A program made the translations under genes and the position numbers. From Eledone cirrhosa (lineage: Eukaryota): a stretch of 64,000 nt of DNA. The stretch is from assembly GCA_964016885.1 (NCBI GenBank), contig OZ024747.1:20646001-20710000 (forward strand), written 5' to 3'. Position 1 is the stretch's first letter. Every line of letters starts with the position of its first letter. This document shows, in pieces, positions 2,898-33,629 of the stretch. A model generated the notes under the pieces. It was given only the letters and a program-made list of their open reading frames with translations. It did not search any database and was not told where the DNA came from.

Positions 2898-3259
2898 GGG
2901 TGAGAGATGCAAGAATGGCCCTAGTGAATGGGCCTACTCTAGATATGTGCCTGTAAATTGGAGGTGGAAAACTGGGAGAGGGCACTTGCCCTGGTGGTCA
3001 GGGTCACCGTGGCTTTTCTAATAGGTTTTCTCCACGATGGCCCTCGGAAGTACCCCCCCCCCCCTATTGGGGAATATTTCATTGTTCTTTTATTGTTACA
3101 TCCTCTGTTTTTTTTTGTTTTATTTACACGCAGAAATGCCCATTTGTACCGTCCTGTATTGTCCTTAATGTCTATTTTATGTAAACCCTTGTGGTTAATA
3201 AAGAAAGTATTATTATTATTGTTATTATTATTTTTCATTGTTATTGTTATTGTTATTGC

Positions 3260-3314
<55 letters not shown>
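2898..3314 (+). mobile_element. 5'-truncated, diverged copy (sister subfamily) of the Tx1-like LINE
   Basis: Encodes (W)VRDARMALVNGPTLDMCL* versus WVREARMARVNGPTLSIYL* in the full copies. Has a homologous 3' UTR, AATAAA and a ~105-bp imperfect (ATT/GTT)n tail (about 3209-3314). Confidence 0.92.
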
Positions 3315-3527
3315 GAATGCCATGGTTGACGGAGGCTCGGCTCTGTAAGGTATAGTAATTTTTAACCGTTAAAACAATTGTAAATTGTTTAAAACTTGAA
3401 CCAAATTGTTGATAAAGACACCCTCCTCCTCGTGAGAGGGGTCTTTCTGTCCGTTATTTGGCCCTTCGGGGTTAAATAACCAGTTATTGGGGTTTTGTAC
3501 CCAAAATTTCATTTTAAACAAAAAAAC

Positions 3528-5624
3528 ATGGCTACCAAAAAGAAATTTCATACGTCACTCCCACTCATTCCGTCTTCTTCTTCCTCAATCATCACTACAG
3601 CAGAGAGAAGATTGTCTCTCTCCCTCCCTTCTTTAAATGTGTCTCTCTCCCTCCCTTCTCTTTCGCAAGTGACGAAAGAAAAGAAAAGTCTCGTGCAAAG
3701 CGTGCAAGGTTTCTCCACGACGACGACGACAGCGACGAAACAGGTGTGCGGGAAATACGAAAACCCAGTTCATTCGTCTGACGTCAGGAATAATAGCAGT
3801 AGCAGCCGTAATAACAACAGCAACAGTGACAATGAAAACAACAGTAGCAGCCGCAACAGCATCACCAGCAGCATAAACAACAACAGCATTAGCAGCAGCA
3901 ACACCAACAACAACCACAGCAACAGCGGCGGAGGCAGTAGTCGTAGTACCTGCAGCAACAACAAAAGTACCAGCAGCTCTGACGACAACAACAACAGCAG
4001 AGAAAAACCAATCTCATTTGCAGGTATTGCGAAAAATTTGGAAACAATCCTCATAACAAATGAGGAATTAGAGGAAGCGAAGAAGATGGTGACAAAGAAC
4101 GGACACCGAGCAATCTGCAAGGCAGCGAAAAATTTTTTCGAAACCCAAGAGCACTGTACGGTCACGTACCGTACAGTAAGTACAAAATCCCGTAGGGTGG
4201 AAAGAGCCACAGAGGCCCAAATACAAAAAGCCTTGGGGTCTGTGTGGCAGCGGAAAACGCACATCACCCGAGGCAAAAAATATGCCACCGTAGACGTACT
4301 TTTTGCCACACCCCAGGAGGCAAAGGCCCAATCAGTAGTGACCCTAAGGAGCGAGGAAATGGTGTTGGTGCCCTCCTACTGTGGGCAAAAAATTGTGAGG
4401 GTCAAACTGACCCACGTCCCCCCCGGAATGACCCCTTCTTGGCTGGCCGCGTCTGTCCTCGTCGGAATCGAGGACAAAACAACTGTACTGCAAGTACAGA
4501 AAAAAGTAAGAGAAGATTGGGTCGGCTCCTCCATTGAGATGCTAATCCAAACCAACCAGGAGTGCATCGAAGCTATCCCGGATGTGATAGACTTCGATAA
4601 CGGCACTCAACTGCCCATAAGTGTTGAGGGCAAACGCCCGAAATGCTTTCGCTGTGGATCGAAGACTCACCTCAGGGCCTTCTGCAACGAGAAGACCCTG
4701 AGAAAGGAGAAAACCCCCCTCCTTCCGAATCCGGCTCCACGGCTACCAGCAACAGGACAAGCGGCAACCAGGAACGATAGGCCCGTGGCACCCATACCCA
4801 CTCCACGGAAATCAAAAACAGCAGCAGCAGTGGAAATACTAACAACAACAACAGCAATACCAAATGCAGCTGCAACAGAGACTCCAGTGCAAACATCACC
4901 AACAACAACAAGTGAAAGAGTGGAGTTGGTACCCCTCCCCGACCTCACAGAATCAGACATGGAGTGTGAGGTGGGAGAGAGATGGCAAAAGGTCGTAAGA
5001 AGGCACAAACGCAGAAGCAGCGCATCGTCGCCTTTGAAAAGTGAGGAAAGAAATGAGAAAAGGGTAAAGTCTACTGCAAAGAGACCCACAGCAGCAACAA
5101 CACCAACACCATCACCACCCACACTAGCGCCACCATCACCACCGGCGACAACCCCACCGCCAACAACACCTTCAACACCACCACCACAAGCACCAACATC
5201 GCAAACACAACAACAAAACACACACACCCAGCAACAACGACAAGAAAATAGCAGAACCACACCCCACCCCCAGAAAAACAAATGCACGGCAATAAATACA
5301 CACAACAAGAAACTAATGACTTACATAATTGAACACACAGACATTTCACAACAGGACTACATAATACCAGCACCAATCAAAACGCCAACTAACATAAGAC
5401 TGCTAAAAATAGCACAGAAACAATACACAAATATTAAAACGAAATTCCCCAACGCAGTTGGTGATTTCAGGGACCTAGGAGGAACCATCAATCGAAGAGT
5501 ATACTCAGACATTCTCTTAGAAGAGCCGACGACCAGCCGAAGGGACGATTCAACGGTCCCTTCACCAGACGATCAAGTGAAAAGGGATGTAAAAACCATC
5601 CCTCCTCTACCAAAAGTACGGTAA
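3528..5624 (+). CDS. LINE ORF1, gag-like nucleic-acid-binding protein (698 aa), copy 1
   Basis: First ATG in frame (aacATGg); the track start at 3495 is a TTG. Contains CCHC knuckle CFRCGSKTHLRAFC, an N/S-rich N-terminal tract, a probable RRM-like middle region, a basic RRHKRR stretch and a P/T/Q-rich tail. Confidence 0.9.
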   Translation: MATKKKFHTSLPLIPSSSSSIITTAERRLSLSLPSLNVSLSLPSLSQVTKEKKSLVQSVQGFSTTTTTATKQVCGKYENPVHSSDVRNNSSSSRNNNSNSDNENNSSSRNSITSSINNNSISSSNTNNNHSNSGGGSSRSTCSNNKSTSSSDDNNNSREKPISFAGIAKNLETILITNEELEEAKKMVTKNGHRAICKAAKNFFETQEHCTVTYRTVSTKSRRVERATEAQIQKALGSVWQRKTHITRGKKYATVDVLFATPQEAKAQSVVTLRSEEMVLVPSYCGQKIVRVKLTHVPPGMTPSWLAASVLVGIEDKTTVLQVQKKVREDWVGSSIEMLIQTNQECIEAIPDVIDFDNGTQLPISVEGKRPKCFRCGSKTHLRAFCNEKTLRKEKTPLLPNPAPRLPATGQAATRNDRPVAPIPTPRKSKTAAAVEILTTTTAIPNAAATETPVQTSPTTTSERVELVPLPDLTESDMECEVGERWQKVVRRHKRRSSASSPLKSEERNEKRVKSTAKRPTAATTPTPSPPTLAPPSPPATTPPPTTPSTPPPQAPTSQTQQQNTHTQQQRQENSRTTPHPQKNKCTAINTHNKKLMTYIIEHTDISQQDYIIPAPIKTPTNIRLLKIAQKQYTNIKTKFPNAVGDFRDLGGTINRRVYSDILLEEPTTSRRDDSTVPSPDDQVKRDVKTIPPLPKVR

Positions 5625-5659
5625 GTGGTCTTTCCCATCTTTTCCACTCTATTTTAAAC

Positions 5660-8600
5660 ATGACCTCACTCAGAATAGGCAGCATAAATGCGCGTGGCTT
5701 GGGGTCGTCATGGAAGCAGGGTCACCTGCTCAACGACCTCAGGTCACTAAACATAGATGTAGTGGCCATCAGCGAGACCAGAATCTCCGAAGCACGGGCC
5801 TTCGCACCGATCTTCGGCGGCTTCGATGTGTACGCATCTCCCAGCCGTCCTGGATCCGGTGGAGGAGTTGCTGTGCTTTTTCGGAGAGGTTTGGATCTCG
5901 CCATACGGGCCATCTTCCTGGACCCAGAGGGTAAGCTGGTGGTGCTGGACGTGACCAGCGGAGACGGGCAAGCTTTCAGGCTAGTGGCCGTCTATGCCCC
6001 GACAGGAGCAGGGCGGCCTGATTTCTTCCGGCGTCTGGAGACCTTTCTTGGAACGTCCCGCTCTTTAGTGTTAGTGGGCGACTGGAACGGGATCTTAGAT
6101 GCACGCTGGGACTGTGTGGGATTAGCGGATAGGGGTGGAGGGTGCAAGAGCCTCACCAACCTGCTCAGGCGTTTTGAACTGTCTGACAGGTACCGATTGG
6201 ATTTCCCGAATGTGCCAATGTGGACTTGGACAAACCGCATAGGGTCATCCAGATCATATCTAGATAGAGTATTTTGTAGGGAAATAGATAGGTCTAGCAT
6301 AGGCTGTCCACAATTCAAGATAGTCAGCTACACGGACCACAAATTCGTGATCTGTGTGCTTGACTTAGATAGGCTTCATAGACGAGGACCCGGCTACTGG
6401 AAGCTAAACGCGTCCTTACCAGCGCGCAAGGCCTACAGAGACCGGATTAGCGAACTAGTTAAGCGGGCGTTGACGGGGGCCATCGTCAACAACAAGTGGT
6501 GGTTTGCTCTGAAAAGAGCGATTAGAATAGAATCGATTAGGTTTAGTAAGGCTTTAGCAATAGAGAAAAATAGAGCAGAGGGAGAACTAGTTAGAAAATT
6601 AGACGAGGCGCTTAGCAAAGGCATTGCGACCGACGTGCTTGCGGCGAAATTGGCCCTTGACCAATTCTTCAATGCAAAGCACGAAGGCTGCGTTGTCAGA
6701 GCTAGGGTGCGTGCTCTCAGAGACGAGGGGACGAAAGCCGTTCAATGGGCCCGAGTGGCGGAGGCGCGTCGTGGCAACAAAGCCACGATCCGGTCTTTGG
6801 TGGACCACGACGGGCGCATGCTACTCGATCCCGGGCAAATGTGTGAAGCTTTTCAGCGACACTTCGCTCAGCTGTTCGGGGGCAGCGGGGGGCCGGGTAG
6901 AGGGATGGACTTTAGTGTCTACCTCGACGGACTGCCGCGGCTCTCGGCCACTGAGGCGAAGTGTTGCGAAAAGCCGATAACAGCCGCTGAAGTAAGGGAG
7001 GCAATGACTGGCTGCACAAGGGGTAAATCGCCTGGTTTGGATGGTCTGCCCTATGAACTTTACGTACAGATGCCAGACTTGTTCGGAGGCCTCTTGGCGG
7101 ACGTCTACTGCAACTGGCAACAGAACGGGAGAATTCCCAGTTCTGTGAGCCGAGGAGCGGTGGCACTGCTGAGAAAGGATCCGAACAAGGGGGATAACAT
7201 AGACAATTTCCGGCCCATAACTCTGCTAAACACAGAGTTTAAGATTTTGGCCAAGGTGCTAGCAAAGAGGTTGGCGCTTGTCGTTGGTGGTCTGGTGGGA
7301 GAGGCGCAGACATGCGCCATTCCCGACAGATCCATCCACGACAACCTCCACCTCATGCGATACATCGTAGAGAGGGTAGCTAGGGAACCTGGCACGGGTG
7401 GGTCCTTGATCAATTTAGATCAGTCGAAAGCTTTCGATAGGGTCGACCATCGTTACCTAGCGGCAGTCCTGAGGGCGGCTGGCTTTGGGCCCGTCTTCAG
7501 AGGCTGGATCGCTGCCATGCACAGCGACATCTGCTCTGTGGTGAGAGTGAACGGTCACCTGTCGGAACCGTTCAACATCATGCGCTCGGTCCGCCAAGGA
7601 TGTCCCCTCTCGTCCCTCTTGTACGTATTGACTCTCGAGCCATTACTGCACAAACTGGAGACGTTGAGGGGAGTCCCGCGCGAACTAGGATGCGGAAGAT
7701 CCGTGTCAGCATATGCGGACGATGTCACCGTAGTGGTGTCGAACGCCAAACACATCGAGGCGATCGGCACTACACTAAGAGAATACGAAGCGGTGACAGG
7801 AGCAATGATCAACCAGGAAAAGTCAGTGGGCCTGCAGCTCGGCACCTGGAGAGGCAGGTCCATGCCGTTCAACAGCGTCGTCGGGCGCTGGACGGACGGA
7901 CCGGTTAAATTGCTAGGGGTCTGGTTCGGTCCGGACCTCCAGACGGACAAAAACTGGGACGAGGTGACGAGCAGGGTGGCTTCTCTCACCCAGAAATGGG
8001 CGGAGAGGAAGCTATCCCTGAAAGGTCGAGCGGAGGTGGCTAACGCGTACATCGCGTCTGTCATCTGCTACCGCCTAACCGTCGTACCTTGTCCTAAGCC
8101 TCGCCTGACTGCGCTGGAGCGTTTGCTCTTTCGCTTTTTGTGGAAGGGACGTGCTCCGATGGTCAGGCGGTCCATCTGTTGTCAACACCCGCTACGTGGA
8201 GGGCTGGGCATGCCGTGGCTGATGATGCGCAGGCACGCGCTCAGGCTACGACATCTCCACCTCTTCCTCGACGGTGATCAGGTGTGGTCGCCGTTTGCTA
8301 GACGCGTTTTTCCCCAGCTCGTTTCCTTGACGGAGCTGCAGTCCTGGGTCAAGCGAAGACCGAGAGGGAGCGCCTGGAGACTGGAATGTCTTCAGGCGCT
8401 CACAGCCCTCGACCAATCGGGCAATGTGATCGGTGGAAACTCCACCTCGGCGTTCTATAGAGGATTAGTGGAGGGGAAGAGCGACGACGTACTTGGGGAA
8501 ACTCTAGGCGTCGACGAAAATCAACTAGCCAATCTCTTCGGAAGAACCTTCGGGCCAGGGCCTATGGACAACTTCCAGAAATCTCTGGCCTGGCAGTGCT

Positions 8601-9079
8601 ACCGAGGAGCCTTGCCAGTTCGGGATAAACTCTACAGGCATGGAGGTGCCGTCAGCCGGGCATGTCCGAGATGCGCGCAGGGCGACGAAACCGTCCTGCA
8701 CGCACTCGTCCAGTGTCCGAAAATTGCTGACTTGTGGGTTTATGTCGAACACCTGCTGTCGCGTTTAGGACGGATCCAGCTATCATCTGAGTCTATCGTG
8801 AGGATTGCCCCGCCCTCCTCCTTTAGCCGGGAAGGGCAGGCAGTTTTTATCTGTCTGGTGGCCATGGCGAAAGAGATAGTATGGTGGACACGTTTGAAAG
8901 GGCTGAAGACGAGCACTTACCTCTTCGGTGATGCTCTGATTGACTTTTTCAAATTTCATTTGAAAAGGAAAATCAGAGTAGAGAAGGAAGTGCTCTCTTC
9001 CCAGCATTTTGTTGAAAGATGGGTGAGAGAAGCAAGAATGGCCCGAGTGAATGGGCCGACTCTGAGTATATATCTGTAA
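5660..9079 (+). CDS. LINE ORF2: APE endonuclease, reverse transcriptase, C-terminal zinc finger (1139 aa), copy 1
   Basis: APE motifs INARGL, SETR, VYAP, GDWN, LDR, TDH; linker GPGYWKLN; RT motifs KSPGLDG, FRPITLLN, LDQSKAFDRV, RQGCPLS, YADD; CPRC..DETVLHALVQC. This motif set is typical of L1/Tx1 elements. Confidence 0.97.
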   Translation: MTSLRIGSINARGLGSSWKQGHLLNDLRSLNIDVVAISETRISEARAFAPIFGGFDVYASPSRPGSGGGVAVLFRRGLDLAIRAIFLDPEGKLVVLDVTSGDGQAFRLVAVYAPTGAGRPDFFRRLETFLGTSRSLVLVGDWNGILDARWDCVGLADRGGGCKSLTNLLRRFELSDRYRLDFPNVPMWTWTNRIGSSRSYLDRVFCREIDRSSIGCPQFKIVSYTDHKFVICVLDLDRLHRRGPGYWKLNASLPARKAYRDRISELVKRALTGAIVNNKWWFALKRAIRIESIRFSKALAIEKNRAEGELVRKLDEALSKGIATDVLAAKLALDQFFNAKHEGCVVRARVRALRDEGTKAVQWARVAEARRGNKATIRSLVDHDGRMLLDPGQMCEAFQRHFAQLFGGSGGPGRGMDFSVYLDGLPRLSATEAKCCEKPITAAEVREAMTGCTRGKSPGLDGLPYELYVQMPDLFGGLLADVYCNWQQNGRIPSSVSRGAVALLRKDPNKGDNIDNFRPITLLNTEFKILAKVLAKRLALVVGGLVGEAQTCAIPDRSIHDNLHLMRYIVERVAREPGTGGSLINLDQSKAFDRVDHRYLAAVLRAAGFGPVFRGWIAAMHSDICSVVRVNGHLSEPFNIMRSVRQGCPLSSLLYVLTLEPLLHKLETLRGVPRELGCGRSVSAYADDVTVVVSNAKHIEAIGTTLREYEAVTGAMINQEKSVGLQLGTWRGRSMPFNSVVGRWTDGPVKLLGVWFGPDLQTDKNWDEVTSRVASLTQKWAERKLSLKGRAEVANAYIASVICYRLTVVPCPKPRLTALERLLFRFLWKGRAPMVRRSICCQHPLRGGLGMPWLMMRRHALRLRHLHLFLDGDQVWSPFARRVFPQLVSLTELQSWVKRRPRGSAWRLECLQALTALDQSGNVIGGNSTSAFYRGLVEGKSDDVLGETLGVDENQLANLFGRTFGPGPMDNFQKSLAWQCYRGALPVRDKLYRHGGAVSRACPRCAQGDETVLHALVQCPKIADLWVYVEHLLSRLGRIQLSSESIVRIAPPSSFSREGQAVFICLVAMAKEIVWWTRLKGLKTSTYLFGDALIDFFKFHLKRKIRVEKEVLSSQHFVERWVREARMARVNGPTLSIYL

Positions 9080-9340
9080 ACTAAAGGTGGAAAACTGGGA
9101 GAGGGCACTTGCCTTGGTGGTCAGGGTCATTGTGGCTTTTTACTGGGCTTTCTCCACAAATGTCCCTCCGAAGTCTCCCCCCTATTGGGGAATTTTTCAT
9201 TGTTATTTTCATTGTTATTTTTGTTACATCCTCTATTTTTGTTTTTTTTACACGCAGAAATGCCCATTTGTACCGTCCTGCATTGTCCTGCACTGTCCTT
9301 AATGTCTACTTTATGTAAACCCTTGTGGTTAATAAAGAAA

Positions 9341-9387
<47 letters not shown>

Positions 9388-9600
9388 GAATGCCATGGTT
9401 GACGGAGGCTCGGCTCTGTAAGGTATAGTAATTTTTAACCGTTAAAACAATTGTAAATTGTTTAAAACTTGAACCAAATTGTTGATAAAGACACCCTCCT
9501 CCTCGTGAGAGGGGTCTTTCTGTCCGTTATTTGGCCCTTCGGGGTTAAATAGCCAGTTATTGGGGTTTTGTACCCAAAATTTCATTTTAAACAAAAAAAC

Positions 9601-11700
9601 ATGGCTACCAAAAAAAAAAAATTTCATACGTCACTCCCACTCATTCCGTCTTCTTCTTCCTCAATCATCACTACAGGAGAGAGAAGATTGTCTCTCTCCC
9701 TCCCTTCTTTAAATGTGTCTCTCTCCCTACCTTCTCTTTCGCAAGCGACGAAAGAAAAGAAAAGTCTCGTGCAAAGCGTGCAAGGTTTCTCCACGACGAC
9801 GACGACAGCGACGAAACAGGTGTGCGGGAAATACGAAAACCCAGTTCATTCGTCTGACGTCAGGAATAATAGCAGTAGCAGCCGTAATAACAACAGCAAC
9901 AGTGACAATGAAAACAACAGTAGCAGCCGCAACAGCATCACCAGCAGCATAAACAACAACACCATTAGCAGCAGCAACACCAACAACAACCACAGCAACA
10001 GCGGCGGAGGCAGTAGTCGTAGTACCTGCAGCAACAACAAAAGTACCAGCAGCTCTGACGACAACAACAACAGCAGAGAAAAACCAATCTCATTTGCAGG
10101 TATTGCGAAAAACCTGGAAACAATCCTCATAACAAATGAGGAATTAGAGGAAGCGAAGAAGATGGTGACAAAGAACGGACACCGAGCAATCTGCAAGGCA
10201 GCGAAAAATTTTTTCGAAACCCAAGAGCACTGTACGGTCACGTACCGTACAGTAAGTACAAAATCCCGTAGGGTGGAAAGAGCCACAGAGGCCCAAATAC
10301 AAAAAGCCTTGGGGTCTGTGTGGCAGAGGAAAACGCACATCACCCGAGGCAAAAAATACGCCACCGTAGACGTACTTTTTGCCACACCCCAGGAGGCAAA
10401 GGCCCAATCAGTAGTGACCCTAAGGAGCGAGGAAATGGTGTTGGTGCCCTCCTACTGCGGGCAAAAAATTGTGAGGGTCAAACTGACCCACGTCCCCCCC
10501 GGAATGACCCCTTCTTGGCTGGCCGCGTCTGTCCTCGTCGGAATCGAGGACAAAACAACTGTACTGCAAGTACAGAAAAAAGTAAGAGAAGATTGGGTCG
10601 GCTCCTCCATTGAGATGCTAATCCAAACCAACCAGGAGTGCATCGAAGCTATCCCGGATGTGATAGACTTCGATAACGGCACTCAACTGCCCATAAGTGT
10701 TGAGGGCAAACGCCCGAAATGCTTTCGCTGTGGATCGAAGACTCACCTCAGGGCCTTCTGCAACGAGAAGACCCTGAGAAAGGAGAAAACCCCCCTCCTC
10801 CCGAATCCGGTTCCACGGCTACCAGCAACAGGACAAGCGGCAACCAGGAACGATAGGTCCGTGGCACCCATACCCACTCCACGGAAATCAAAGACAGCAG
10901 CAGCAGTGGAAATATTAACAACAACAACAGCAATACCAAATGCAGCTGCAACAGAGACTCCAGTGCAAACATCACCAACAACAACAAGTGAAAGAGTGGA
11001 GCTGGTACCCCTCCCCGACCTTACAGAATCAGACATGGAGTGTGAGGTGGGAGAGGGATGGCAAAAGGTCTCAAGAAGGCACAAACGCAGAAGCAGCGCA
11101 TCGTCGCCTTTGAAAAGGGAGGAAAGAAATGAGAAAAGGGTAAAGTCTACTGCAAAGAGACCCACAGCAGCAACACCACCAACACCATCACCACCCACAC
11201 CAGCACCACCATCACCACCGGCGACAACCCCACCGCCAACAACACCTTCAACACCACCACCACAAGCACCAACATCGCAAACACAACAACAAAACACACA
11301 CACCCAGCAACAACGACAAGAAAATAGCAGAACCACACCCCACCCCCAGAAAAACAAATGCACGGCAATAAACACACACAACAAGAAACTAATGACTTAC
11401 ATAATTGAACACACAGACATTTCACAACAGGACTACATAATACCAGCACCAATCAAAACGCCAACTAACATAAGACTGCTAAAAATAGCACAGAAACAAT
11501 ACACAAACATTAAAACGAAATTCCCCAACGCAGTTGGTGATTTCAGGGACCTAGGAGGAACCATTAATCGAAGAGTATATTCAGACATTCTCTTAGAAGA
11601 GCCGACGACCAGCCGAAGGGACGATTCAACGGTCCCTTCACCAGACGATCAAGTGAAAAGGGATGTAAAAACCATCCCTCCTCTACCAAAAATACGGTAA
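9601..11700 (+). CDS. LINE ORF1, copy 2 (699 aa)
   Basis: As copy 1, with one extra Lys and 11 amino-acid differences. Confidence 0.9.
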   Translation: MATKKKKFHTSLPLIPSSSSSIITTGERRLSLSLPSLNVSLSLPSLSQATKEKKSLVQSVQGFSTTTTTATKQVCGKYENPVHSSDVRNNSSSSRNNNSNSDNENNSSSRNSITSSINNNTISSSNTNNNHSNSGGGSSRSTCSNNKSTSSSDDNNNSREKPISFAGIAKNLETILITNEELEEAKKMVTKNGHRAICKAAKNFFETQEHCTVTYRTVSTKSRRVERATEAQIQKALGSVWQRKTHITRGKKYATVDVLFATPQEAKAQSVVTLRSEEMVLVPSYCGQKIVRVKLTHVPPGMTPSWLAASVLVGIEDKTTVLQVQKKVREDWVGSSIEMLIQTNQECIEAIPDVIDFDNGTQLPISVEGKRPKCFRCGSKTHLRAFCNEKTLRKEKTPLLPNPVPRLPATGQAATRNDRSVAPIPTPRKSKTAAAVEILTTTTAIPNAAATETPVQTSPTTTSERVELVPLPDLTESDMECEVGEGWQKVSRRHKRRSSASSPLKREERNEKRVKSTAKRPTAATPPTPSPPTPAPPSPPATTPPPTTPSTPPPQAPTSQTQQQNTHTQQQRQENSRTTPHPQKNKCTAINTHNKKLMTYIIEHTDISQQDYIIPAPIKTPTNIRLLKIAQKQYTNIKTKFPNAVGDFRDLGGTINRRVYSDILLEEPTTSRRDDSTVPSPDDQVKRDVKTIPPLPKIR

Positions 11701-11735
11701 GTGGTCTTTCCCATCTTTTCCACTCTATTTTAAAC

Positions 11736-14700: not shown

Positions 14701-15155
14701 ATAAACTCTACAGGCATGGAGGTGCCGTCAGCCGGGCATGTCCGAGATGCGCGCAGGGCGACGAAACCGTCCTGCACGCACTCGTCCAGTGTCCGAAAAT
14801 TGCTGACTTGTGGGTTTATGTCGAACACCTGCTGTCGCGTTTAGGACGGATCCAGCTATCATCTGAGTCTATCGTGAGGATTGCCCCGCCCTCCTCCTTT
14901 AGCCGGGAAGGGCAGGCAGTTTTTATCTGTCTGGTGGCCATGGCGAAAGAGATAGTATGGTGGACACGTTTGAAAGGGCTGAAGACGAGCACTTACCTCT
15001 TCGGTGATGCTCTGATTGACTTTTTCAAATTTCATTTGAAAAGGAAAATCAGAGTAGAGAAGGAAGTGCTCTCTTCCCAGCATTTTGTTGAAAGATGGGT
15101 GAGAGAAGCAAGAATGGCCCGAGTGAATGGGCCGACTCTGAGTATATATCTGTAA
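11736..15155 (+). CDS. LINE ORF2 (APE-RT-zinc finger), copy 2
   Basis: 1139 aa, intact; 3 amino-acid differences from copy 1. Confidence 0.97.
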   Translation: MTSLRIGSINARGLGSSWKQGHLLNDLRSLNIDVVAISETRISEARAFAPIFGGYDVYASPSRPGSGGGVAVLFRRGLDLAIRAIFLDPEGKLVVLDVTSGDGQAFRLVAVYAPTGAGRPDFFRRLETFLGTSRSLVLVGDWNGILDARWDCVGLADRGGGCKSLTNLLRRFELSDRYRLDFPNVPMWTWTNRIGSSRSYLDRVFCREIDRSSIGCPQFKIVSYTDHKFVICVLDLDRLHRRGPGYWKLNASLPARKAYRDRISELVKRALTGAIVNNKWWFALKRAIRIESIRFSKALAIEKNRAEGELVRKLDEALSKGIATDVLAAKLALDQFFNAKHEGCVVRARVRALRHEGTKAVQWARVAEARRGNKATIRSLVDHDGRMLLDPGQMCEAFQRHFAQLFGGSGGPGRGMDFSVYLDGLPRLSATEAKCCEKPITAAEVREAMTGCTRGKSPGLDGLPYELYVQMPDLFGGLLADVYCNWQQNGRIPSSVSRGAVALLRKDPNKGDNIDNFRPITLLNTEFKILAKVLAKRLALVVGGLVGEAQTCAIPDRSIHDNLHLMRYIVERVAREPGTGGSLINLDQSKAFDRVDHRYLAAVLRAAGFGPVFRGWIAAMHSDICSVVRVNGHLSEPFNIMRSVRQGCPLSSLLYVLTLEPLLHKLETLRGVPRELGCGRSVSAYADDVTVVVSNAKHIEAIGTTLREYEAVTGAMINQEKSVGLQLGTWRGRSMPSNSVVGRWTDGPVKLLGVWFGPDLQTDKNWDEVTSRVASLTQKWAERKLSLKGRAEVANAYIASVICYRLTVVPCPKPRLTALERLLFRFLWKGRAPMVRRSICCQHPLRGGLGMPWLMMRRHALRLRHLHLFLDGDQVWSPFARRVFPQLVSLTELQSWVKRRPRGSAWRLECLQALTALDQSGNVIGGNSTSAFYRGLVEGKSDDVLGETLGVDENQLANLFGRTFGPGPMDNFQKSLAWQCYRGALPVRDKLYRHGGAVSRACPRCAQGDETVLHALVQCPKIADLWVYVEHLLSRLGRIQLSSESIVRIAPPSSFSREGQAVFICLVAMAKEIVWWTRLKGLKTSTYLFGDALIDFFKFHLKRKIRVEKEVLSSQHFVERWVREARMARVNGPTLSIYL

Positions 15156-17757: not shown

Positions 17758-17792
17758 GTGGTCTTTCCCATCTTTTCCACTCTATTTTAAAC

Positions 17793-23814: not shown

Positions 23815-23849
23815 GTGGTCTTTCCCATCTTTTCCACTCTATTTTAAAC

Positions 23850-26800: not shown

Positions 26801-27269
26801 CTTGCCAGTTCGGGATAAACTCTACAGGCATGGAGGTGCCGTCAGCCGGGCATGTCCGAGATGCGCGCAGGGCGACGAAACCGTCCTGCACGCACTCGTC
26901 CAGTGTCCGAAAATTGCTGACTTGTGGGTTTATGTCGAACACCTGCTGTCGCGTTTAGGACGGATCCAGCTATCATCTGAGTCTATCGTGAGGATTGCCC
27001 CGCCCTCCTCCTTTAGCCGGGAAGGGCAGGCAGTTTTTATCTGTCTGGTGGCCATGGCGAAAGAGATAGTATGGTGGACACGTTTGAAAGGGCTGAAGAC
27101 GAGCACTTACCTCTTCGGTGATGCTCTGATTGACTTTTTCAAATTTCATTTGAAAAGGAAAATCAGAGTAGAGAAGGAAGTGCTCTCTTCCCAGCATTTT
27201 GTTGAAAGATGGGTGAGAGAAGCAAGAATGGCCCGAGTGAATGGGCCGACTCTGAGTATATATCTGTAA
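23850..27269 (+). CDS. LINE ORF2 (APE-RT-zinc finger), copy 4
   Basis: 1139 aa, intact. Confidence 0.97.
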   Translation: MTSLRIGSINARGLGSSWKQGHLLNDLRSLNIDVVAISETRISEARAFAPIFGGYDVYASPSRPGSGGGVAVLFRRGLDLAIRAIFLDPEGKLVVLDVTSGDGQAFRLVAVYAPTGAGRPDFFRRLETFLGTSRSLVLVGDWNGILDARWDCVGLADRGGGCKSLTNLLRRFELSDRYRLDFPNVPMWTWTNRIGSSRSYLDRVFCREIDRSSIGCPQFKIVSYTDHKFVICVLDLDRLHRRGPGYWKLNASLPARKAYRDRISELVKRALTGAIVNNKWWFALKRAIRIESIRFSKALAIEKNRAEGELVRKLDEALSKGIATDVLAAKLALDQFFNAKHEGCVVRARVRALRHEGTKAVQWARVAEARRGNKATIRSLVDHDGRMLLDPGQMCEAFQRHFAQLFGGSGGPGRGMDFSVYLDGLPRLSATEAKCCEKPITAAEVREAMTGCTRGKSPGLDGLPYELYVQMPDLFGGLLADVYCNWQQNGRIPSSVSRGAVALLRKDPNKGDNIDNFRPITLLNTEFKILAKVLAKRLALVVGGLVGEAQTCAIPDRSIHDNLHLMRYIVERVAREPGTGGSLINLDQSKAFDRVDHRYLAAVLRAAGFGPVFRGWIAAMHSDICSVVRVNGHLSEPFNIMRSVRQGCPLSSLLYVLTLEPLLHKLETLRGVPRELGCGRSVSAYADDVTVVVSNAKHIEAIGTTLREYEAVTGAMINQEKSVGLQLGTWRGRSMPSNSVVGRWTDGPVKLLGVWFGPDLQTDKNWDEVTSRVASLTQKWAERKLSLKGRAEVANAYIASVICYRLTVVPCPKPRLTALERLLFRFLWKGRAPMVRRSICCQHPLRGGLGMPWLMMRRHALRLRHLHLFLDGDQVWSPFARRVFPQLVSLTELQSWVKRRPRGSAWRLECLQALTALDQSGNVIGGNSTSAFYRGLVEGKSDDVLGETLGVDENQLANLFGRTFGPGPMDNFQKSLAWQCYRGALPVRDKLYRHGGAVSRACPRCAQGDETVLHALVQCPKIADLWVYVEHLLSRLGRIQLSSESIVRIAPPSSFSREGQAVFICLVAMAKEIVWWTRLKGLKTSTYLFGDALIDFFKFHLKRKIRVEKEVLSSQHFVERWVREARMARVNGPTLSIYL

Positions 27270-27771
27270 ACTAAAGGTGGAAAACTGGGAGAGGGCACTT
27301 GCCTTGGTGGTCAGGGTCATTGTGGCTTTTTACTGGGCTTTCTCCACAAATGTCCCTCCGAAGTCTCCCCCCTATTGGGGAATTTTTCATTGTTATTTTC
27401 ATTGTTATTTTTGTTACATCCTCTATTTTTGTTTTTTTACACGCAGAAATGCCCATTTGTACCGTCCTGCATTGTCCTGCACTGTCCTTAATGTCTACTT
27501 TATGTAAACCCTTGTGGTTAATAAAGAAATCATTATTATTATTATTATTATTATTATTGAATGCCATGGTTGACGGAGGCTCGGCTCTGTAAGGTATAGT
27601 AATTTTTAACCGTTAAAACAATTGTAAATTGTTTAAAACTTGAACCAAATTGTTGATAAAGACACCCTCCTCCTCGTGAGAGGGGTCTTTCTGTCCGTTA
27701 TTTGGCCCTTCGGGGTTAAATAACCAGTTATTGGGGTTTTGTACCCAAAATTTGATTTTAAACAAAAAAAC

Positions 27772-29862
27772 ATGGCTACCAAAAAGAAATTTCATACGTC
27801 ACTCCCACTCATTCCGTCTTCTTCTTCCTCAATCATCACTACAGCAGAGAGAAGATTGTCTCTCTCCCTCCCTTCTTTAAATGTGTCTCTCTCCCTCCCT
27901 TCTCTTTCGCAAGCGACGAAAGAAAAGAAAAGTCTCGTGCAAAGCGTGCAAGGTTTCTCCACGACGACGACGACAGCGACGAAACAGGTGTGCGGGAAAT
28001 ACGAAAACCCAGTTCATTCGTCTGACGTCAGGAATAATAGCAGTAGCAGCCGTAATAACAACAGCAACAGTGACAATGAAAACAACAGTAGCAGCCGCAA
28101 CAGCATCACCAGCAGCATAAACAACAACAGCATTAGCAGCAGCAACACCAACAACAACCACAGCAACAGCGGCGGAGGCAGTAGTCGTAGTACCTGCAGC
28201 AACAACAAAAGTACCAGCAGCTCTGACGACAACAACAACAGCAGAGAAAAACCAATCTCATTTGCAGGTATTGCGAAAAACCTGGAAACAATCCTCATAA
28301 CAAATGAGGAATTAGAGGAAGCGAAGAAGATGGTGACAAAGAACGGACACCGAGCAATCTGCAAGGCAGCGAAAAATTTTTTCGAAACCCAAGAGCACTG
28401 TACGGTCACGTACCGTACAGTAAGTACAAAATCCCGTAGGGTGGAAAGAGCCACAGAGGCCCAAATACAAAAAGCCTTGGGGTCTGTGTGGCAGAGGAAA
28501 ACGCACATCACCCGAGGCAAAAAATACGCCACCGTAGACGTACTTTTTGCCACACCCCAGGAGGCAAAGGCCCAATCAGTAGTGACCCTAAGGAGCGAGG
28601 AAATGGTGTTGGTGCCCTCCTACTGCGGGCAAAAAATTGTGAGGGTCAAACTGACCCACGTCCCCCCCGGAATGACCCCTTCTTGGCTGGCCGCGTCTGT
28701 CCTCGTCGGAATCGAGGACAAAACAACTGTACTGCAAGTACAGAAAAAAGTAAGAGAAGATTGGGTCGGCTCCTCCATTGAGATGCTAATCCAAACCAAC
28801 CAGGAGTGCATCGAAGCTATCCCGGATGTGATAGACTTCGATAACGGCACTCAACTGCCCATAAGTGTTGAGGGCAAACGCCCGAAATGCTTTCGCTGTG
28901 GATCGAAGACTCACCTCAGGGCCTTCTGCAACGAGAAGACCATGAGAAAGGAGAAAACCCCCCTCCTCCCGAATCCGGTTCCACGGCTACCAGCAACAGG
29001 ACAAGCGGCAACCAGGAACGATAGGTCCGTGGCACCCATACCCACTCCACGGAAATCAAAGACAGCAGCAGCAGTGGAAATATTAACAACAACAACAGCA
29101 ATACCAAATGCAGCTGCAACAGAGACTCCAGTGCAAACATCACCAACAACAACAAGTGAAAGAGTGGAGCTGGTACCCCTCCCCGACCTTACAGAATCAG
29201 ACATGGAGTGTGAGGTGGGAGAGGGATGGCAAAAGGTCTCAAGAAGGCACAAACGCAGAAGCAGCGCATCGTCGCCTTTGAAAAGGGAGGAAAGAAATGA
29301 GAAAAGGGTAAAGTCTACTGCAAAGAGACCCACAGCAGCAACACCACCAACACCATCACCACCCACACCAGCACCACCATCACCACCGGCGACAACCCCA
29401 CCGCCAACAACACCTTCAACACCACAAGCACCAACATCGCAAACACAACAACAAAACACACACACCCAGCAACAACGACAAGAAAATAGCAGAACCACAC
29501 CCCACCCCCAGAAAAACAAATGCACGGCAATAAACACACACAACAAGAAACTAATGACTTACATAATTGAACACACAGACATTTCACAACAGGACTACAT
29601 AATACCAGCACCAATCAAAACGCCAACTAACATAAGACTGCTAAAAATAGCACAGAAACAATACACAAACATTAAAACGAAATTCCCCAACGCAGTTGGT
29701 GATTTCAGGGACCTAGGAGGAACCATTAATCGAAGAGTATATTCAGACATTCTCTTAGAAGAGCCGACGACCAGCCGAAGGGACGATTCAACGGTCCCTT
29801 CACCAGACGATCAAGTGAAAAGGGATGTAAAAACCATCCCTCCTCTACCAAAAATACGGTAA
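27772..29862 (+). CDS. LINE ORF1, copy 5 (696 aa)
   Basis: Intact; lacks two Pro residues (STPQ versus STPPPQ). Confidence 0.9.
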   Translation: MATKKKFHTSLPLIPSSSSSIITTAERRLSLSLPSLNVSLSLPSLSQATKEKKSLVQSVQGFSTTTTTATKQVCGKYENPVHSSDVRNNSSSSRNNNSNSDNENNSSSRNSITSSINNNSISSSNTNNNHSNSGGGSSRSTCSNNKSTSSSDDNNNSREKPISFAGIAKNLETILITNEELEEAKKMVTKNGHRAICKAAKNFFETQEHCTVTYRTVSTKSRRVERATEAQIQKALGSVWQRKTHITRGKKYATVDVLFATPQEAKAQSVVTLRSEEMVLVPSYCGQKIVRVKLTHVPPGMTPSWLAASVLVGIEDKTTVLQVQKKVREDWVGSSIEMLIQTNQECIEAIPDVIDFDNGTQLPISVEGKRPKCFRCGSKTHLRAFCNEKTMRKEKTPLLPNPVPRLPATGQAATRNDRSVAPIPTPRKSKTAAAVEILTTTTAIPNAAATETPVQTSPTTTSERVELVPLPDLTESDMECEVGEGWQKVSRRHKRRSSASSPLKREERNEKRVKSTAKRPTAATPPTPSPPTPAPPSPPATTPPPTTPSTPQAPTSQTQQQNTHTQQQRQENSRTTPHPQKNKCTAINTHNKKLMTYIIEHTDISQQDYIIPAPIKTPTNIRLLKIAQKQYTNIKTKFPNAVGDFRDLGGTINRRVYSDILLEEPTTSRRDDSTVPSPDDQVKRDVKTIPPLPKIR

Positions 29863-29897
29863 GTGGTCTTTCCCATCTTTTCCACTCTATTTTAAAC

Positions 29898-32800
29898 ATG
29901 ACCTCACTCAGAATAGGCAGCATAAATGCGCGTGGCTTGGGGTCGTCATGGAAGCAGGGTCACCTGCTCAACGACCTCAGGTCACTAAACATAGATGTAG
30001 TGGCCATCAGCGAGACCAGAATCTCCGAAGCACGGGCCTTCGCACCGATCTTCGGCGGCTACGATGTGTACGCATCTCCCAGCCGTCCTGGATCCGGTGG
30101 AGGAGTTGCTGTACTTTTTCGGAGAGGTTTGGATCTCGCCATACGGGCCATCTTCCTGGACCCAGAGGGTAAGCTGGTGGTGCTGGACGTGACCAGCGGA
30201 GACGGGCAAGCTTTCAGGCTAGTGGCCGTCTATGCCCCGACAGGAGCAGGGCGGCCTGATTTCTTCCGGCGTCTGGAGACCTTTCTTGGAACGTCCCGCT
30301 CTTTAGTGTTAGTGGGCGACTGGAACGGGATCTTAGATGCACGCTGGGACTGTGTGGGATTAGCGGATAGGGGTGGAGGGTGCAAGAGCCTCACCAACCT
30401 GCTCAGGCGTTTTGAACTGTCTGACAGGTACCGATTGGATTTCCCGAATGTGCCAATGTGGACTTGGACAAACCGCATAGGGTCATCCAGATCATATCTA
30501 GATAGAGTATTTTGTAGGGAAATAGATAGGTCTAGCATAGGCTGTCCACAATTCAAGATAGTCAGCTACACGGACCACAAATTCGTGACCTGTGTGCTTG
30601 ACTTAGATAGGCTTCATAGACGAGGACCCGGCTACTGGAAGCTAAACGCGTCCTTACCAGCGCGCAAGGCCTACAGAGACCGGATTAGCGAACTAGTTAA
30701 GCGGGCGTTGACGGGGGCCATCGTCAACAACAAGTGGTGGTTTGCTCTGAAAAGAGCGATTAGAATAGAATCGATTAGGTTTAGTAAGGCTTTAGCAATA
30801 GAGAAAAATAGAGCAGAGGGAGAACTAGTTAGAAAATTAGACGAGGCGCTTAGCAAAGGCATTGCGACCGACGTGCTTGCGGCGAAATTGGCCCTTGACC
30901 AATTCTTCAATGCAAAGCACGAAGGCTGCGTTGTCAGAGCTAGGGTGCGTGCTCTCAGACACGAGGGGACGAAAGCCGTTCAATGGGCCCGAGTGGCGGA
31001 GGCGCGTCGTGGCAACAAAGCCACGATCCGGTCTTTGGTGGACCACGACGGGCGCATGCTACTCGATCCCGGGCAAATGTGTGAAGCTTTTCAGCGACAC
31101 TTCGCTCAGCTGTTCGGGGGCAGCGGGGGGCCGGGTAGAGGGATGGACTTTAGTGTCTACCTCGACGGGCTGCCGCGGCTCTCGGCCACTGAGGCGAGGT
31201 GTTGCGAAAAGCCGATAACAGCCGCTGAAGTACGGGAGGCAATGACTGGCTGCACAAGGGGTAAATCGCCTGGTTTGGATGGTCTGCCCTATGAACTTTA
31301 CGTACAGATGCCAGACTTGTTCGGAGGCCTCTTGGCGGACGTCTACTGCAACTGGCAACAGAACGGGAGAATTCCCAGTTCTGTGAGCCGAGGAGCGGTG
31401 GCACTGCTGAGAAAGGATCCGAACAAGGGGGATAACATAGACAATTTCCGGCCCATAACTCTGCTAAACACAGAGTTTAAGATTTTGGCCAAGGTGCTAG
31501 CAAAGAGGTTGGCGCTTGTCGTTGGTGGTCTGGTGGGAGAGGCGCAGACATGCGCCATTCCCGACAGATCCATCCACGACAACCTCCACCTCATGCGATA
31601 CATCGTAGAGAGGGTAGCTAGGGAACCTGGCACGGGTGGGTCCTTGATCAATTTAGATCAGTCGAAAGCTTTCGATAGGGTCGACCATCGTTACCTAGCG
31701 GCAGTCCTGAGGGCGGCTGGCTTTGGGCCCGTCTTCAGAGGCTGGATCGCTGCCATGCACAGCGACATCTGCTCTGTGGTGAGAGTGAACGGTCACCTGT
31801 CGGAACCGTTCAACATCATGCGCTCGGTCCGCCAAGGATGTCCCCTCTCGTCCCTCTTGTACGTATTGACGCTCGAGCCATCACTGCACAAACTGGAGAC
31901 GTTGAGGGGAGTCCCGCGCGAACTAGGATGCGGAAGATCCGTGTCAGCATATGCGGACGATGTCACCGTAGTGGTGTCGAACGCCAAACACATCGAGGCG
32001 ATCGGCACTACACTAAGAGAATACGAAGCGGTGACAGGAGCAATGATCAACCAGGAAAAGTCAGTGGGCCTGCAGCTCGGCACCTGGAGAGGCAGGTCCA
32101 TGCCGTCCAACAGCGTCGTCGGGCGCTGGACGGACGGACGGTTAAATTGCTAGGGGTCTGGTTCGGTCCGGACCTCCAGACGGACAAAAACTGGGACGAG
32201 GTGACGAGCAGGGTGGCTTCTCTCACCCAGAAATGGGCGGAGAGGAAGCTATCCCTGAAAGGTCGAGCGGAGGTGGCTAACGCGTACATCGCGTCTGTCA
32301 TCTGCTACCGCCTAACCGTCGTACCTTGTCCTAAGCCTCGCCTGACTGCGCTGGAGCGTTTGCTCTTTCGCTTTTTGTGGAAGGGACGTGCTCCGATGGT
32401 CAGGCGGTCCATCTGTTGTCAACACCCGCTACGTGGAGGGCTGGGCATGCCGTGGCTGATGATGCGCAGGCACGCGCTCAGGCTACGACATCTCCACCTC
32501 TTCCTCGACGGTGATCAGGTGTGGTCGCCGTTTGCTAGACGCGTTTTTCCCCAGCTCGTTTCCTTGACGGAGCTGCAGTCCTGGGTCAAGCGAAGACCGA
32601 GAGGGAGCGCCTGGAGACTGGAATGTCTTCAGGCGCTCACAGCCCTCGACCAATCGGGCAATGTGATCGGTGGAAACTCCACCTCGGCGTTCTATAGAGG
32701 ATTAGTGGAGGGGAAGAGCGACGACGTACTTGGGGAAACTCTAGGCGTCGACGAAAATCAACTAGCCAATCTCTTCGGAAGAACTTTCGGGCCAGGGCCT

Positions 32801-33316
32801 ATGGACAACTTCCAGAAATCTCTGGCCTGGCAGTGCTACCGAGGAGCCTTGCCAGTTCGGGATAAACTCTACAGGCATGGAGGTGCCGTCAGCCGGGCAT
32901 GTCCGAGATGCGCGCAGGGCGACGAAACCGTCCTGCACGCACTCGTCCAGTGTCCGAAAATTGCTGACTTGTGGGTTTATGTCGAACACCTGCTGTCGCG
33001 TTTAGGACGGATCCAGCTATCATCTGAGTCTATCGTGAGGATTGCCCCGCCCTCCTCCTTTAGCCGGGAAGGGCAGGCAGTTTTTATCTGTCTGGTGGCC
33101 ATGGCGAAAGAGATAGTATGGTGGACACGTTTGAAAGGGCTGAAGACGAGCACTTACCTCTTCGGTGATGCTCTGATTGACTTTTTCAAATTTCATTTGA
33201 AAAGGAAAATCAGAGTAGAGAAGGAAGTGCTCTCTTCCCAGCATTTTGTTGAAAGATGGGTGAGAGAAGCAAGAATGGCCCGAGTGAATGGGCCGACTCT
33301 GAGTATATATCTGTAA
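29898..33316 (+). pseudogene. LINE ORF2, copy 5, split by a 1-bp deletion near 32139
   Basis: ggacggaccggtt reads ggacggacggtt here. The track shows a 751-aa N-terminal part (to 32153) and the remainder in another frame ending at 33316. Could also be an assembly error. Confidence 0.85.
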
Positions 33317-33577
33317 ACTAAAGGTGGAAAACTGGGAGAGGGCACTTGCCTTGGTGGTCAGGGTCATTGTGGCTTTTTACTGGGCTTTCTCCACAAATGT
33401 CCCTCCGAAGTCTCCCCCCTATTGGGGAATTTTTCATTGTTATTTTCATTGTTATTTTTGTTACATCCTCTATTTTTGTTTTTTTTACACGCAGAAATGC
33501 CCATTTGTACCGTCCTGCATTGTCCTGCACTGTCCTTAATGTCTACTTTATGTAAACCCTTGTGGTTAATAAAGAAA

Positions 33578-33629
<52 letters not shown>

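Follow-up and report, generated by a model that had tools for sequence, protein, structure and literature searches.

INTRODUCTION

Chimeric insertions of human L1 that were finished on nearby homologous DNA were reportedly seen by Gilbert et al. in 2005. An SDSA-like finish of this kind is described for 22 templated human L1 insertions, most of them <250 bp, and is rare (bioRxiv 10.1101/2024.08.27.596794). Telomeric LINE arrays are formed by HeT-A, TART and TAHRE (PMC4700185), and the routes to tandem elements given by McGurk and Barbash (2018, PMC5932611), who describe an R1 array of Drosophila, are LTR recombination, rolling circle and double insertion. Microsatellites are targets of several LINEs. 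Within the Tx1 clade, Kibi is described from (TC)n, Koshi from (TTC)n and crocodilian Tx1 families from (TTCC)n/(TTTC)n (PMC4494074, PMC3812793). Dong elements are described as (TAA)n-specific (PMC3812793), R4 is listed as carrying a restriction-like endonuclease (RLE; PMC4640811), and among the LINE groups recently active in Octopus vulgaris, Dong-R4 is named as the most numerous (PMC13282606).

Here we analyse a LINE array in another octopod, Eledone cirrhosa. The element is a young L1/Tx1-type LINE residing almost exclusively in (ATT)n. We consider it probable that its stacks grow mostly at the front: a newcomer would insert in the ATT tract just 5' of a resident and, for about one-third to one-half of adjacent pairs, would finish by copying the resident's 5' part together with the tract.

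RESULTS

A 30-kb array of LINEs separated by (ATT)n

The window, a 64,000-nucleotide stretch of contig OZ024747.1, contains as assembled a 30-kb array of one truncated and five full-length co-oriented LINEs with only (ATT)n between the units (Table 1). The sequence GAATGCCATGG occurs five times in the window, always on the forward strand (positions 3315, 9388, 15445, 21502 and 27559) and always directly 3' of an (ATT)n tract, with n = 18, 15, 9, 9 and 9 in that order; the 3' terminus of the last unit is (ATT)16 at 33580–33627. A sequence-only reading of the window had described six co-oriented units without intervening host DNA and five (ATT)n junctions to a 5' end, and both descriptions were borne out, the former by the sequence and by self-BLAST. 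That reading also placed the start of the truncated unit in the (ATT)4 tail of a SINE; U0 does begin immediately after the tail of the repeat at 2704–2897, which we take to be a SINE from its form and size. The right flank, missed in that reading, is a 5'-truncated SINE as well, so that the array lies between two SINEs. The element had been said to be absent from (TA)n, (CA)n, (GA)n and CAT-rich arrays, and among the self-BLAST matches listed for this region those of the element all fall within 2897–33627, none of them at such a tract.

Table 1. Features of the LINE array and its flanks (positions in the window)
Feature	Position	Strand	Description	Evidence
Left flank	2704..2897	+	SINE-like repeat, ends in (ATT)4	self-BLAST to many window copies; sequence
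U0	2898..3314	+	5'-truncated, diverged LINE 3' end (~83% identical to the others); mixed tail closing in (ATT)18	
U1	3315..9387	+	full-length LINE; ORF stops at 5624 and 9079, both ORFs open; tail (ATT)15	
U2	9388..15444	+	full-length LINE; tail (ATT)9	
ORF1 of U2	9601..11700	+	699 aa; CX2CX4HX4C knuckle	sequence
ORF2 of U2	11736..15155	+	1139 aa; APE endonuclease, reverse transcriptase, zf-RVT	Pfam PF03372, PF00078, PF13966
U2 3' end	15406..15444	+	AATAAA, 6 nt, (ATT)9, then directly the next 5' end	sequence
U3	15445..21501	+	full-length LINE; tail (ATT)9	
U4	21502..27558	+	full-length LINE; tail (ATT)9	
U5	27559..33629	+	full-length LINE; 1-bp ORF2 frameshift; 2 private substitutions; tail (ATT)16AT	
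Right flank	33630..33742	+	5'-truncated SINE-like repeat	

Over 6 kb, U2, U3 and U4 differ from one another by 1–2 substitutions, U1 differs from these three by 35–37 and U5 by 17–19. U1 is a block-mosaic haplotype, its 3' half being nearly identical to U2 and its 5' half different. Both ORFs are intact in U1–U4; the frameshift in U5 is a 1-bp deletion near 32,140. As U4 shows 0 substitutions relative to L142 and L144, two copies on another contig, identity alone is no proof that U2–U4 arose by plain duplication. The number of these near-identical units rests on the assembly and is unconfirmed; among short contigs assembled from reads, none extended over the whole array or crossed the L168 junction, where repeats had been skipped.

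The element is an APE-type LINE that appears most similar to Tx1

ORF1 had no Pfam match; its look-alikes in an atlas, which serve as a lead only, were zf-CCHC and RNA-binding (0.90–0.93). The best PDB match of ORF2 was human L1 ORF2p (E 3e-52, 181 bits), compared with only 79 bits for R2. The element has the traits of the APE-type L1 group, namely an N-terminal APE domain, a reverse transcriptase, a C-terminal zinc-binding domain and a separate upstream ORF1. Copies truncated at the 5' side share its 3' end, in which a poly(A) signal precedes a simple tail, and LTRs are absent. The genome contains 9,738 3'-end motifs and 1,604 5' starts, the former count including sibling families. These siblings are 95–99% identical in ORF2 and only ~50% identical in ORF1. 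A coral protein bearing the automatic name 'Transposon TX1 149 kDa protein' was 38% identical over the reverse transcriptase region and 32% over 714 aa; other named protein matches came from cuttlefish, Argonauta, sea cucumbers, amphioxus, fish and turtles, and most matches were unnamed. The Pfam domains and protein matches agree with the initial assignment to APE-type, Tx1-like LINEs, a placement by similarity only, and support an APE–RT–zf-RVT LINE of the L1 group that appears most like Tx1.

Nineteen runs coded as 16 organisms contain 24–92% of the words, and two foreign runs, X4 and X5, yield only 39 and 30 contigs. Host range and horizontal transfer were set aside as readings of these 19 runs, because the X4 and X5 contigs are few; the best runs are perhaps the assembly's own source and are not independent.

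Insertions are tied to (ATT)n throughout the genome

Genome-wide, ATTATTATT precedes 1,564 of the 1,604 exact 26-nt 5' ends, which far exceeds the >20% of flanks with one repeat type that is used as a criterion of target specificity (PMC4494074). After 2 nt, (ATT)3 follows 7,416 of the 9,738 3' ends, sibling families counted in. At least three ATT repeats were present in 77 of 80 fetched copies and at least two in all 80. Thus, the strict tie to (ATT)n seen in the window extends to the genome, and the 5' flanks of dispersed copies are not random: they are enriched in (ATT)n and include SINE and LINE tails. The tail of the element's own family lies upstream in only 21 of the 80 sampled copies, so the element is ATT-targeting rather than self-targeting, as it had first been called. 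Others come after the tail of a SINE or of a sibling LINE, after an RLE-type element or after a plain microsatellite. Pairing between RNA and target could add to the ATT specificity, with a putative role for the endonuclease.

The expectation that arrays are common was confirmed by 465 tail-to-head junctions genome-wide. Other arrays have up to nine full-length copies, and arrays occupy interior positions of contigs >370 Mb long. Off-target copies (L041, L054, L055, L167 and L168) end in only 1–2 ATT followed by non-ATT DNA; the initial proposal that the element deposits a fresh ATT tail was therefore not upheld, and the long 3' tail is probably for the most part target DNA. Tail origin and duplication length were deduced from the copies themselves, because neither an empty site nor an RNA read nor a long read was in evidence.

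Host-tract markers are repeated in internal junctions

Interruptions in the host ATT tract upstream of an array were used as markers, and the loci were selected by their 5' start. All 8 of 8 copies (four arrays) that precede a full-length copy have the upstream interruption again in their own tail, equally far from the copy. Such a recurrence was found in 0 of 14 copies with anything else downstream (4/0 arrays versus 0/14; Fisher p = 3e-4). The duplication includes 14 nt of non-repeat host DNA in L168 and a similar stretch in L167, and in the array at C1:441 Mb the host GCT(ATT)6 marker is present in 9 of 9 internal junctions, with three different left limits. In marker-bearing arrays, then, the host tract that lies before the array is copied into the internal junctions, which do not form a succession in which each tail is the next insertion site. 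Read-through of a concatemer RNA was rejected for these arrays, because what the junctions repeat is the host sequence flanking that very locus.

Several observations count against the proposed copying of a neighbour. Of the 14 marker junctions whose upstream copy is full-length, 5 do not show the marker again (L164, L173, L174, L179 and L180), L172 repeats the flank of its array and not its own upstream junction, and L157 stands in front of a duplicated host stretch with no 5' alleles of the copy behind seen to be shared. As the window junctions are pure ATT, the route taken there is only hinted at.

Adjacent copies often share their 5' parts

A prefix was scored as shared when the identical 5' prefix of an adjacent pair was longer than in 95% of unlinked copies. 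The count covered 54 of 66 pairs, the 12 pairs left out coming from arrays that had been located through a 100% match to the first 200 nt of U2. Prefix sharing was found in 25 of the 54 pairs, which are not independent within one array, and the signal was absent in the other 29; among pairs neither picked by marker nor from the two long arrays, it was found in 10 of 28. The front copy often has the private 5' alleles of its downstream neighbour and a different 3' part. For example, over the first 1.5 kb L091 has 3 differences from its neighbour L090, compared with 103 from the next best copy, and beyond that point ~240; L106 is identical to L107 over 2.9 kb, after which its matches are unlinked copies; and fragment A0 equals its neighbour A1 for 1,409 nt, continues as another haplotype and stops at ~2.1 kb. 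Marker duplication and prefix sharing occurred together (9/9 versus 0/5, p = 5e-4). In the window, the absence of prefix sharing in U1/U2 and U4/U5 counts against neighbour copying, U1/U2 being the sole suffix-only pair; one informative site pair suggests that the 5' end of U2 is possibly chimeric with U3.

The main rival explanation is an ordinary double insertion at a regenerated target. Alleles or sister chromatids would later have undergone unequal crossover or long gene conversion, and this would have produced both the chimeras and the repeated junctions. Double insertion with unequal exchange is a published route to tandems (PMC5932611), the product would be no different if a filled allele had crossed over with an unfilled one, and near-identical neighbours with identical junctions (U2–U4, L155/L156 and L141–L145) are in keeping with it. 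However, expansion by unequal exchange should leave shared suffixes and shared prefixes in similar numbers, whereas among 22 complete pairs we found 8 prefix-only and 1 suffix-only (p = 0.04). Moreover, informative junctions were of the recombined form in 9 cases and of the parent form in 5, different haplotypes are separated by identical junctions (L142/L143/L144 and A1–A9), and A0 has a segment absent from its neighbour. We regard this explanation as unlikely.

Growth is probably mostly at the 5' side

Private substitutions in a nine-copy array were, from 5' to 3', 3, 1, 0, 0, 1, 1, 2, 5 and 19, making the 3'-most copy the oldest. The corresponding numbers for U1–U5 in the window were 0, 0, 0, 0 and 2; U5 is likely the oldest full-length unit, U4–U1 having probably arrived later, each 5' of the units already present. 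The gradient is not monotonic in L125 (11), L124 (4) and L123 (10), which counts against such an order. Marker-bearing arrays appear to grow mostly at the 5' side and not into the previous tail.

If growth were mainly at the 3' side, each new copy would enter the fresh ATT tail of the previous one. The 465 tail-to-head junctions fit this route, as do the greater numbers of private changes in the upstream copy of L081/L080, L087/L088 and L129/L128. Young copies also stand behind older, diverged ones at L201, L206, L210, L211, L218 and L219, as U1 does behind U0, and the six loci confirm that insertion into an older copy's tail occurs; it is a real minor route. As the main route, 3'-side growth is improbable. 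It explains neither the host flank in internal junctions, by which it is refuted for marker-bearing arrays, nor the private 5' alleles common with the downstream copy, and it is opposed by the 1–2 ATT of off-target copies and by the nine-copy array with its oldest member 3'-most.

That collapsed or over-expanded repeats and haplotype switches in the assembly made the arrays and chimeras is very improbable: array order is known from the assembly alone and U2–U4 are nearly identical, all with (ATT)9, but U0, U1, U5 and U2–U4 are four distinct sequences, leaving the caveat mainly on the U2–U4 count, L091/L090 switch between sequences ~5% apart with 3 diverged sites inside the shared part, and nine distinct copies with a host marker at every junction are impossible from two haplotypes.

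DISCUSSION

Proposed completion of new copies on a resident neighbour

Growth at the front with copying of the resident can be set out as follows. Both ends of the element are strictly ATT-associated. The RNA would end in ~1–4 AUU and poly(A), and the APE domain would nick the AAT strand, where the RNA end would pair and prime reverse transcription. Most of the long 3' tail would then stem from the original tract, whereas the repeats left before the element, with a median of 8, would largely be target-site duplication. When a copy of the same family lies downstream, the products suggest that the cDNA would quit the RNA, anneal to that copy and be extended back through the resident's 5' end and the host tract. 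This would yield a full-length chimera, with the neighbour's 5' part and a new 3' part, and an internal junction repeating the host flank. Other pairs would be ordinary insertions before an older copy or in an older copy's tail. We lean slightly towards the broader view that the LINE routinely finishes on a resident neighbour, as its target repeat flanks its own copies; incomplete cDNAs would thereby become full-length, arrays would form from the 5' side, and the family would have a built-in recombination system.

Relation to known elements

Human L1 chimeras are comparable in that the cDNA switches from the RNA to genomic DNA close by, which results in a chimera and a duplication; here, by contrast, ~1/3–1/2 of adjacent full-length pairs appear to be involved and whole elements would be rebuilt. 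Neighbour copying may be commoner here because the shared target sets new cDNA beside old copies. The R1 array and double insertion in Drosophila are similar in that a site-preferring element keeps and regenerates its target, which then lies at the junctions of the head-to-tail tandems that it forms. However, the routes as given by McGurk and Barbash include no completion on a neighbour, and here the duplication spans from the nick to as much as several kb into the resident. HeT-A, TART and TAHRE also form head-to-tail LINE arrays, whereas those described here are interstitial and occur at many sites, those with markers appear to extend into the tract that precedes them, and the element has its own endonuclease domain. 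Our literature search returned no description of neighbour-templated LINE arrays.

Like Kibi, Koshi and the crocodilian Tx1 families, the element is an L1-group APE–RT LINE with strong specificity for a single simple repeat; unlike them, as they are described in PMC4494074 and PMC3812793, it targets (ATT)n, has an octopod host and forms arrays that are probably neighbour-copied. The search found no ATT-specific Tx1 family in cephalopods, although the supplementary target lists of PMC4494074 could include ATT. RLE-type elements occupy the same ATT tracts in this genome in the opposite orientation. Dong, which belongs with R4 in the restriction-like endonuclease clade, shares the microsatellite, but Dong and R4 have that endonuclease at the C-terminus, whereas the present element has an N-terminal APE domain and zf-RVT and inserts on the ATT strand. 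Thus, (ATT)n is added as a target of an APE-type, Tx1-like family, one that is common to RLE-type elements in the opposite orientation, and ATT microsatellite markers in this animal group can be expected to be retroelement ends in many cases.

The origin of LINE tandem arrays, 5'-end swapping and mosaic lineages are presented as open questions (PMC5932611, PMC13174262). Completion on a neighbour, if true, would add a fourth way for LINEs to form tandem arrays, offer a natural test of LINE 5'-end swapping, and explain the block-mosaic haplotypes as well as siblings that keep ORF2 and differ in ORF1. Hundreds of young junctions are available, in which interruptions of the microsatellite show where the nick fell and how far the duplication reaches and the switch point can be read from the neighbour's alleles, so that a step rare for human L1 becomes countable in a germline.

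Results

The window array had been described from the sequence alone as five full-length units (U1 to U5) and a truncated unit (U0, a 3' fragment), each full-length start abutting (ATT)n; this description was correct, and we conclude that the array and its ATT association are real. Every full-length unit contained an ORF1 of 699 aa and an ORF2 of 1139 aa with APE, RT and zf-RVT domains, and U5 carried a 1-bp frameshift. Among solved relatives, human L1 ORF2p ranked first (E 3e-52), with R2 far behind. Named relatives included Octopus sinensis and Argonauta fragments, which matched at 64% in short stretches, cuttlefish sequences (45-50%) and a coral protein carrying the automatic name TX1, with 38% over the RT region and 32% over 714 aa. 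Because of the human L1 ORF2p match and the named relatives, sequence similarity places the element among the L1-group LINEs, probably in the Tx1 clade; its host is likely an octopod. The family is young: a sample of 61 near-full-length copies from contig C1 of the same assembly contained 27 with both ORFs open, and U4 had no substitutions relative to two copies on contig C2. The family as a whole is a block mosaic of haplotypes.

A sibling LINE family starting with GGCGACC after (ATT)n was found at six loci (L192, L199, L204, L209, L214 and, as the upstream element of that C1 locus, L215). Its ORF2 was about 90-99% identical to that of the element (95-99% in the best copies) and its ORF1 ~50%, so that these siblings look like products of an ORF1/5' end swap. 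Elements with two other recurrent starts behind ATT tracts, GGTCTAAGCGG and GGTCGGTGAAG, may be further siblings.

Features of the window array, its surroundings and comparison loci
Feature	Position	Description
SINE-like repeats	2215-2897, 33630-33742	start after ATT, end in ATT, stack head to tail
LINE-like piece	2424-2476	~50 nt, like 3' end of a related LINE, AATAAA + ATT tail, between two SINEs
U0, 3' fragment	2898-3314	~83% identical to full-length units; preceded by (ATT)4 tail of SINE-like repeat
U1	start 3315	abuts (ATT)18
U2	start 9388	abuts (ATT)15
U3	start 15445	abuts (ATT)9
U4	start 21502	abuts (ATT)9
U5	start 27559	abuts (ATT)9
U5 3' end		tail (ATT)16
5'-truncated SINE-like repeat	from 33630	right flank of array
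Satellite	37682-49787	44-nt unit, 275 copies, 92% matches
Satellite	61417-64000	CAT/CAG-rich, 15 nt, >170 copies, continues past window end
9-copy array (L181-L187)	C1:441.09-441.15 Mb	nine full-length copies (A1-A9) + 2.17-kb 5' fragment (A0), 1.7 Mb from contig end
Opposite-orientation upstream element in shared ATT/AAT tract	L001, L002, L008, L016, L017, L021, L022, L023, L028	

The flanks of genomic copies showed the enrichment of (ATT)n at 5' junctions anticipated by the sequence-only reading: ATTATTATT directly preceded 1,564 of 1,604 genome occurrences of the 26-nt 5' start. In an initial search ATT stood at the junction in 30/30 loci, which represent 30 of 40 scored hits. Among 80 of the first 100 starts on C1 (rows 1-40 and 61-100), at least three ATT preceded 77 and at least two preceded all 80. 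(ATT)3 followed 7,416 of 9,738 3'-end motifs, a count that also includes sibling families. Because an own-family tail preceded only 21 of the 80 sampled C1 copies, we conclude that the target is the ATT repeat itself, not the family. The element had been called self-targeting; the strict association with ATT stands, but the other upstream contexts were SINE tails, sibling tails, reversed RLE-type elements and plain microsatellites. The reversed long ORF of another element lay upstream in 9/30 loci; the one at L017 matched R2 weakly (E 0.003) and had motifs of RLE type, and we take these elements to be probably Dong/R4-like.

A gap of 6 nt separated AATAAA from the first ATT. In a set of 30 loci selected through the 3' motif, non-ATT DNA followed a single ATT in L041 and L055 and two ATT in L054. 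L168 had (ATT)2AAT and then host DNA; AAT after (ATT)2-4 recurred (L099, L134, L140, L164, L166, L168 and L179) and may represent the start of poly(A). In 57 copies without a full-length start behind them, the median tract was 8 repeats in front and 14 behind, and the front tract was no longer than the back tract in 44. These lengths fit a ~24-nt duplication plus the original tract, and the long 3' tail is probably mostly target DNA. Insertion thus does regenerate its target, as had been proposed, but probably mainly by duplicating it, off-target tails having only 1-2 ATT.

Tail-(ATT)n-head junctions numbered 465 (331 + 134), about 29% of 5' starts, a ratio that is approximate because the start motifs counted differ in length. 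Of 69 sampled copies whose end could be recognised, 12 were followed by another full-length start. As the genome contains at least 44,770 tracts of six or more ATT, random tract use would yield at most 4-7% copy-then-copy; relative to 7%, the binomial p was 0.003, with tracts counted without weighting by length. Arrays are therefore common and somewhat enriched over random tract use.

Interruptions in (ATT)n tracts served as markers of the side on which arrays grow. Among loci chosen by 5' start, 8/8 copies with a full-length copy behind them (4 arrays) had the upstream marker again in their own tails and at an equal distance, compared with 0/14 that had anything else behind them (p = 3e-4 by array). 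A second set was made up of 20 junctions selected because they carry a marker; a full-length copy lay upstream of 14. Of these 14, 8 repeated their own upstream marker and 5 did not. L172, from this set, repeated its array's flank, and L168 duplicated 14 nt of non-repeat host DNA. Host GCT(ATT)6 was present in 9/9 internal junctions of the C1:441 Mb array, its left limit taking three different positions. Private substitutions numbered, 5' to 3', 3, 1, 0, 0, 1, 1, 2, 5 and 19, rising at the 3' end. Insertion of each new copy into the preceding tail cannot yield a host marker in all internal junctions together with this rise, and was rejected as the source of marker-bearing arrays. Where growth is visible, we conclude that arrays grow mostly at the front.

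Of 66 adjacent pairs examined for shared 5' sequence, 54 were kept; the other 12 had been selected by their 5' 200 nt and were set aside. The identical 5' prefix was longer than in 95% of unlinked copies in 25/54 pairs, although pairs within one array are not independent; the signal was present in 10/28 pairs (5/12 + 5/16) that were neither marker-picked nor from the two long arrays. The 22 complete pairs included 8 that were prefix-only and one, U1/U2, that was suffix-only (p = 0.04). Marker duplication and prefix sharing coincided (9/9 versus 0/5, p = 5e-4). L091 differed from L090 at 3 sites over 1.5 kb (next best copy 103) before turning into young-family sequence, L106 equalled L107 for 2.9 kb and then matched unlinked copies, and A0, which lacks a 3' end, equalled A1 for 1,409 nt before another haplotype. 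First differences between adjacent copies lay about 0.2 to 5.2 kb from the 5' end. These products suggest that the front copy takes its 5' part from its downstream neighbour. The 29/54 pairs without signal are ordinary insertions on either side; the earlier idea that each tail is the next insertion site survives among these pairs but not for marker arrays, which carry host flank internally.

The marker test was inapplicable to the window array because its junctions are pure ATT. Private changes occurred in U5 only, which fits growth towards the 5' side. U2-U4 differed from one another by 1-2 substitutions, from U1 by 35-37 and from U5 by 17-19; they may have arisen when the most active lineage inserted several times or by duplication on the spot, or they may in part be artefacts of assembly. 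Prefix sharing was absent from U1/U2 and U4/U5. Allele 575C was paired with 1236A in 7 copies and with 1236C only in U2 and L143; both of these have a 575C/1236A copy as their immediate downstream neighbour. The U2 alleles are a hint of neighbour copying in the window; an intermediate haplotype would also explain them.

Several other loci were noted. Host flanks like those of the C1:441 Mb array carried arrays on contigs C3 and C4 (L170, L175, L176), and this repeated host sequence is therefore a recurrent target. In the C1:114.8 Mb array (L122-L125) the host marker found in the LINE junctions was also present in a SINE tail; the SINE therefore likely uses the same machinery and site. At C1:234.59-234.62 Mb (L154-L158; five copies), ~250 nt of host microsatellite-rich DNA was repeated along with the element, and L157 was at odds with a simple neighbour-copy prediction. 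At the L174 junction, (ATT)2 was followed by a second copy of the 9 nt that end the element, a product of re-priming or slippage, and the 3' flank of L089 was tail to tail with an inverted copy.

Discussion

Judged from the products, neighbour-templated completion would be the simplest way to obtain marker duplication and prefix sharing in one event. Reverse transcription would be primed in the ATT tract in front of a resident copy. The end of the cDNA would then anneal to that copy, and synthesis would run back through the resident's 5' end and ATT tract. In the main rival, an ordinary insertion comes first and alleles then undergo unequal crossover, which yields the same product; we disfavour this rival because recombined forms exceed parent forms, prefix and suffix sharing are polarised (8 versus 1), and A0 carries a haplotype not in A1 after 1,409 nt.

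Microsatellite-specific Tx1 families are described in PMC4494074 and PMC3812793, the latter also giving Dong as a TAA-specific element. Tandem formation at regenerated targets is likewise known, and the routes outlined in PMC5932611 omit neighbour-templated completion. An SDSA-like completion has been proposed in a preprint for rare human L1 insertions (bioRxiv 10.1101/2024.08.27.596794), whereas in this LINE family it would be a frequent array-building step. Our searches, which covered published papers as distinct from the repeat libraries Repbase and Dfam, turned up neither an ATT-specific Tx1 family in cephalopods nor LINE arrays templated by a neighbour. On this evidence an element of a known kind has a new target, (ATT)n, and frequent neighbour-templated array-building appears to be undescribed at this scale.
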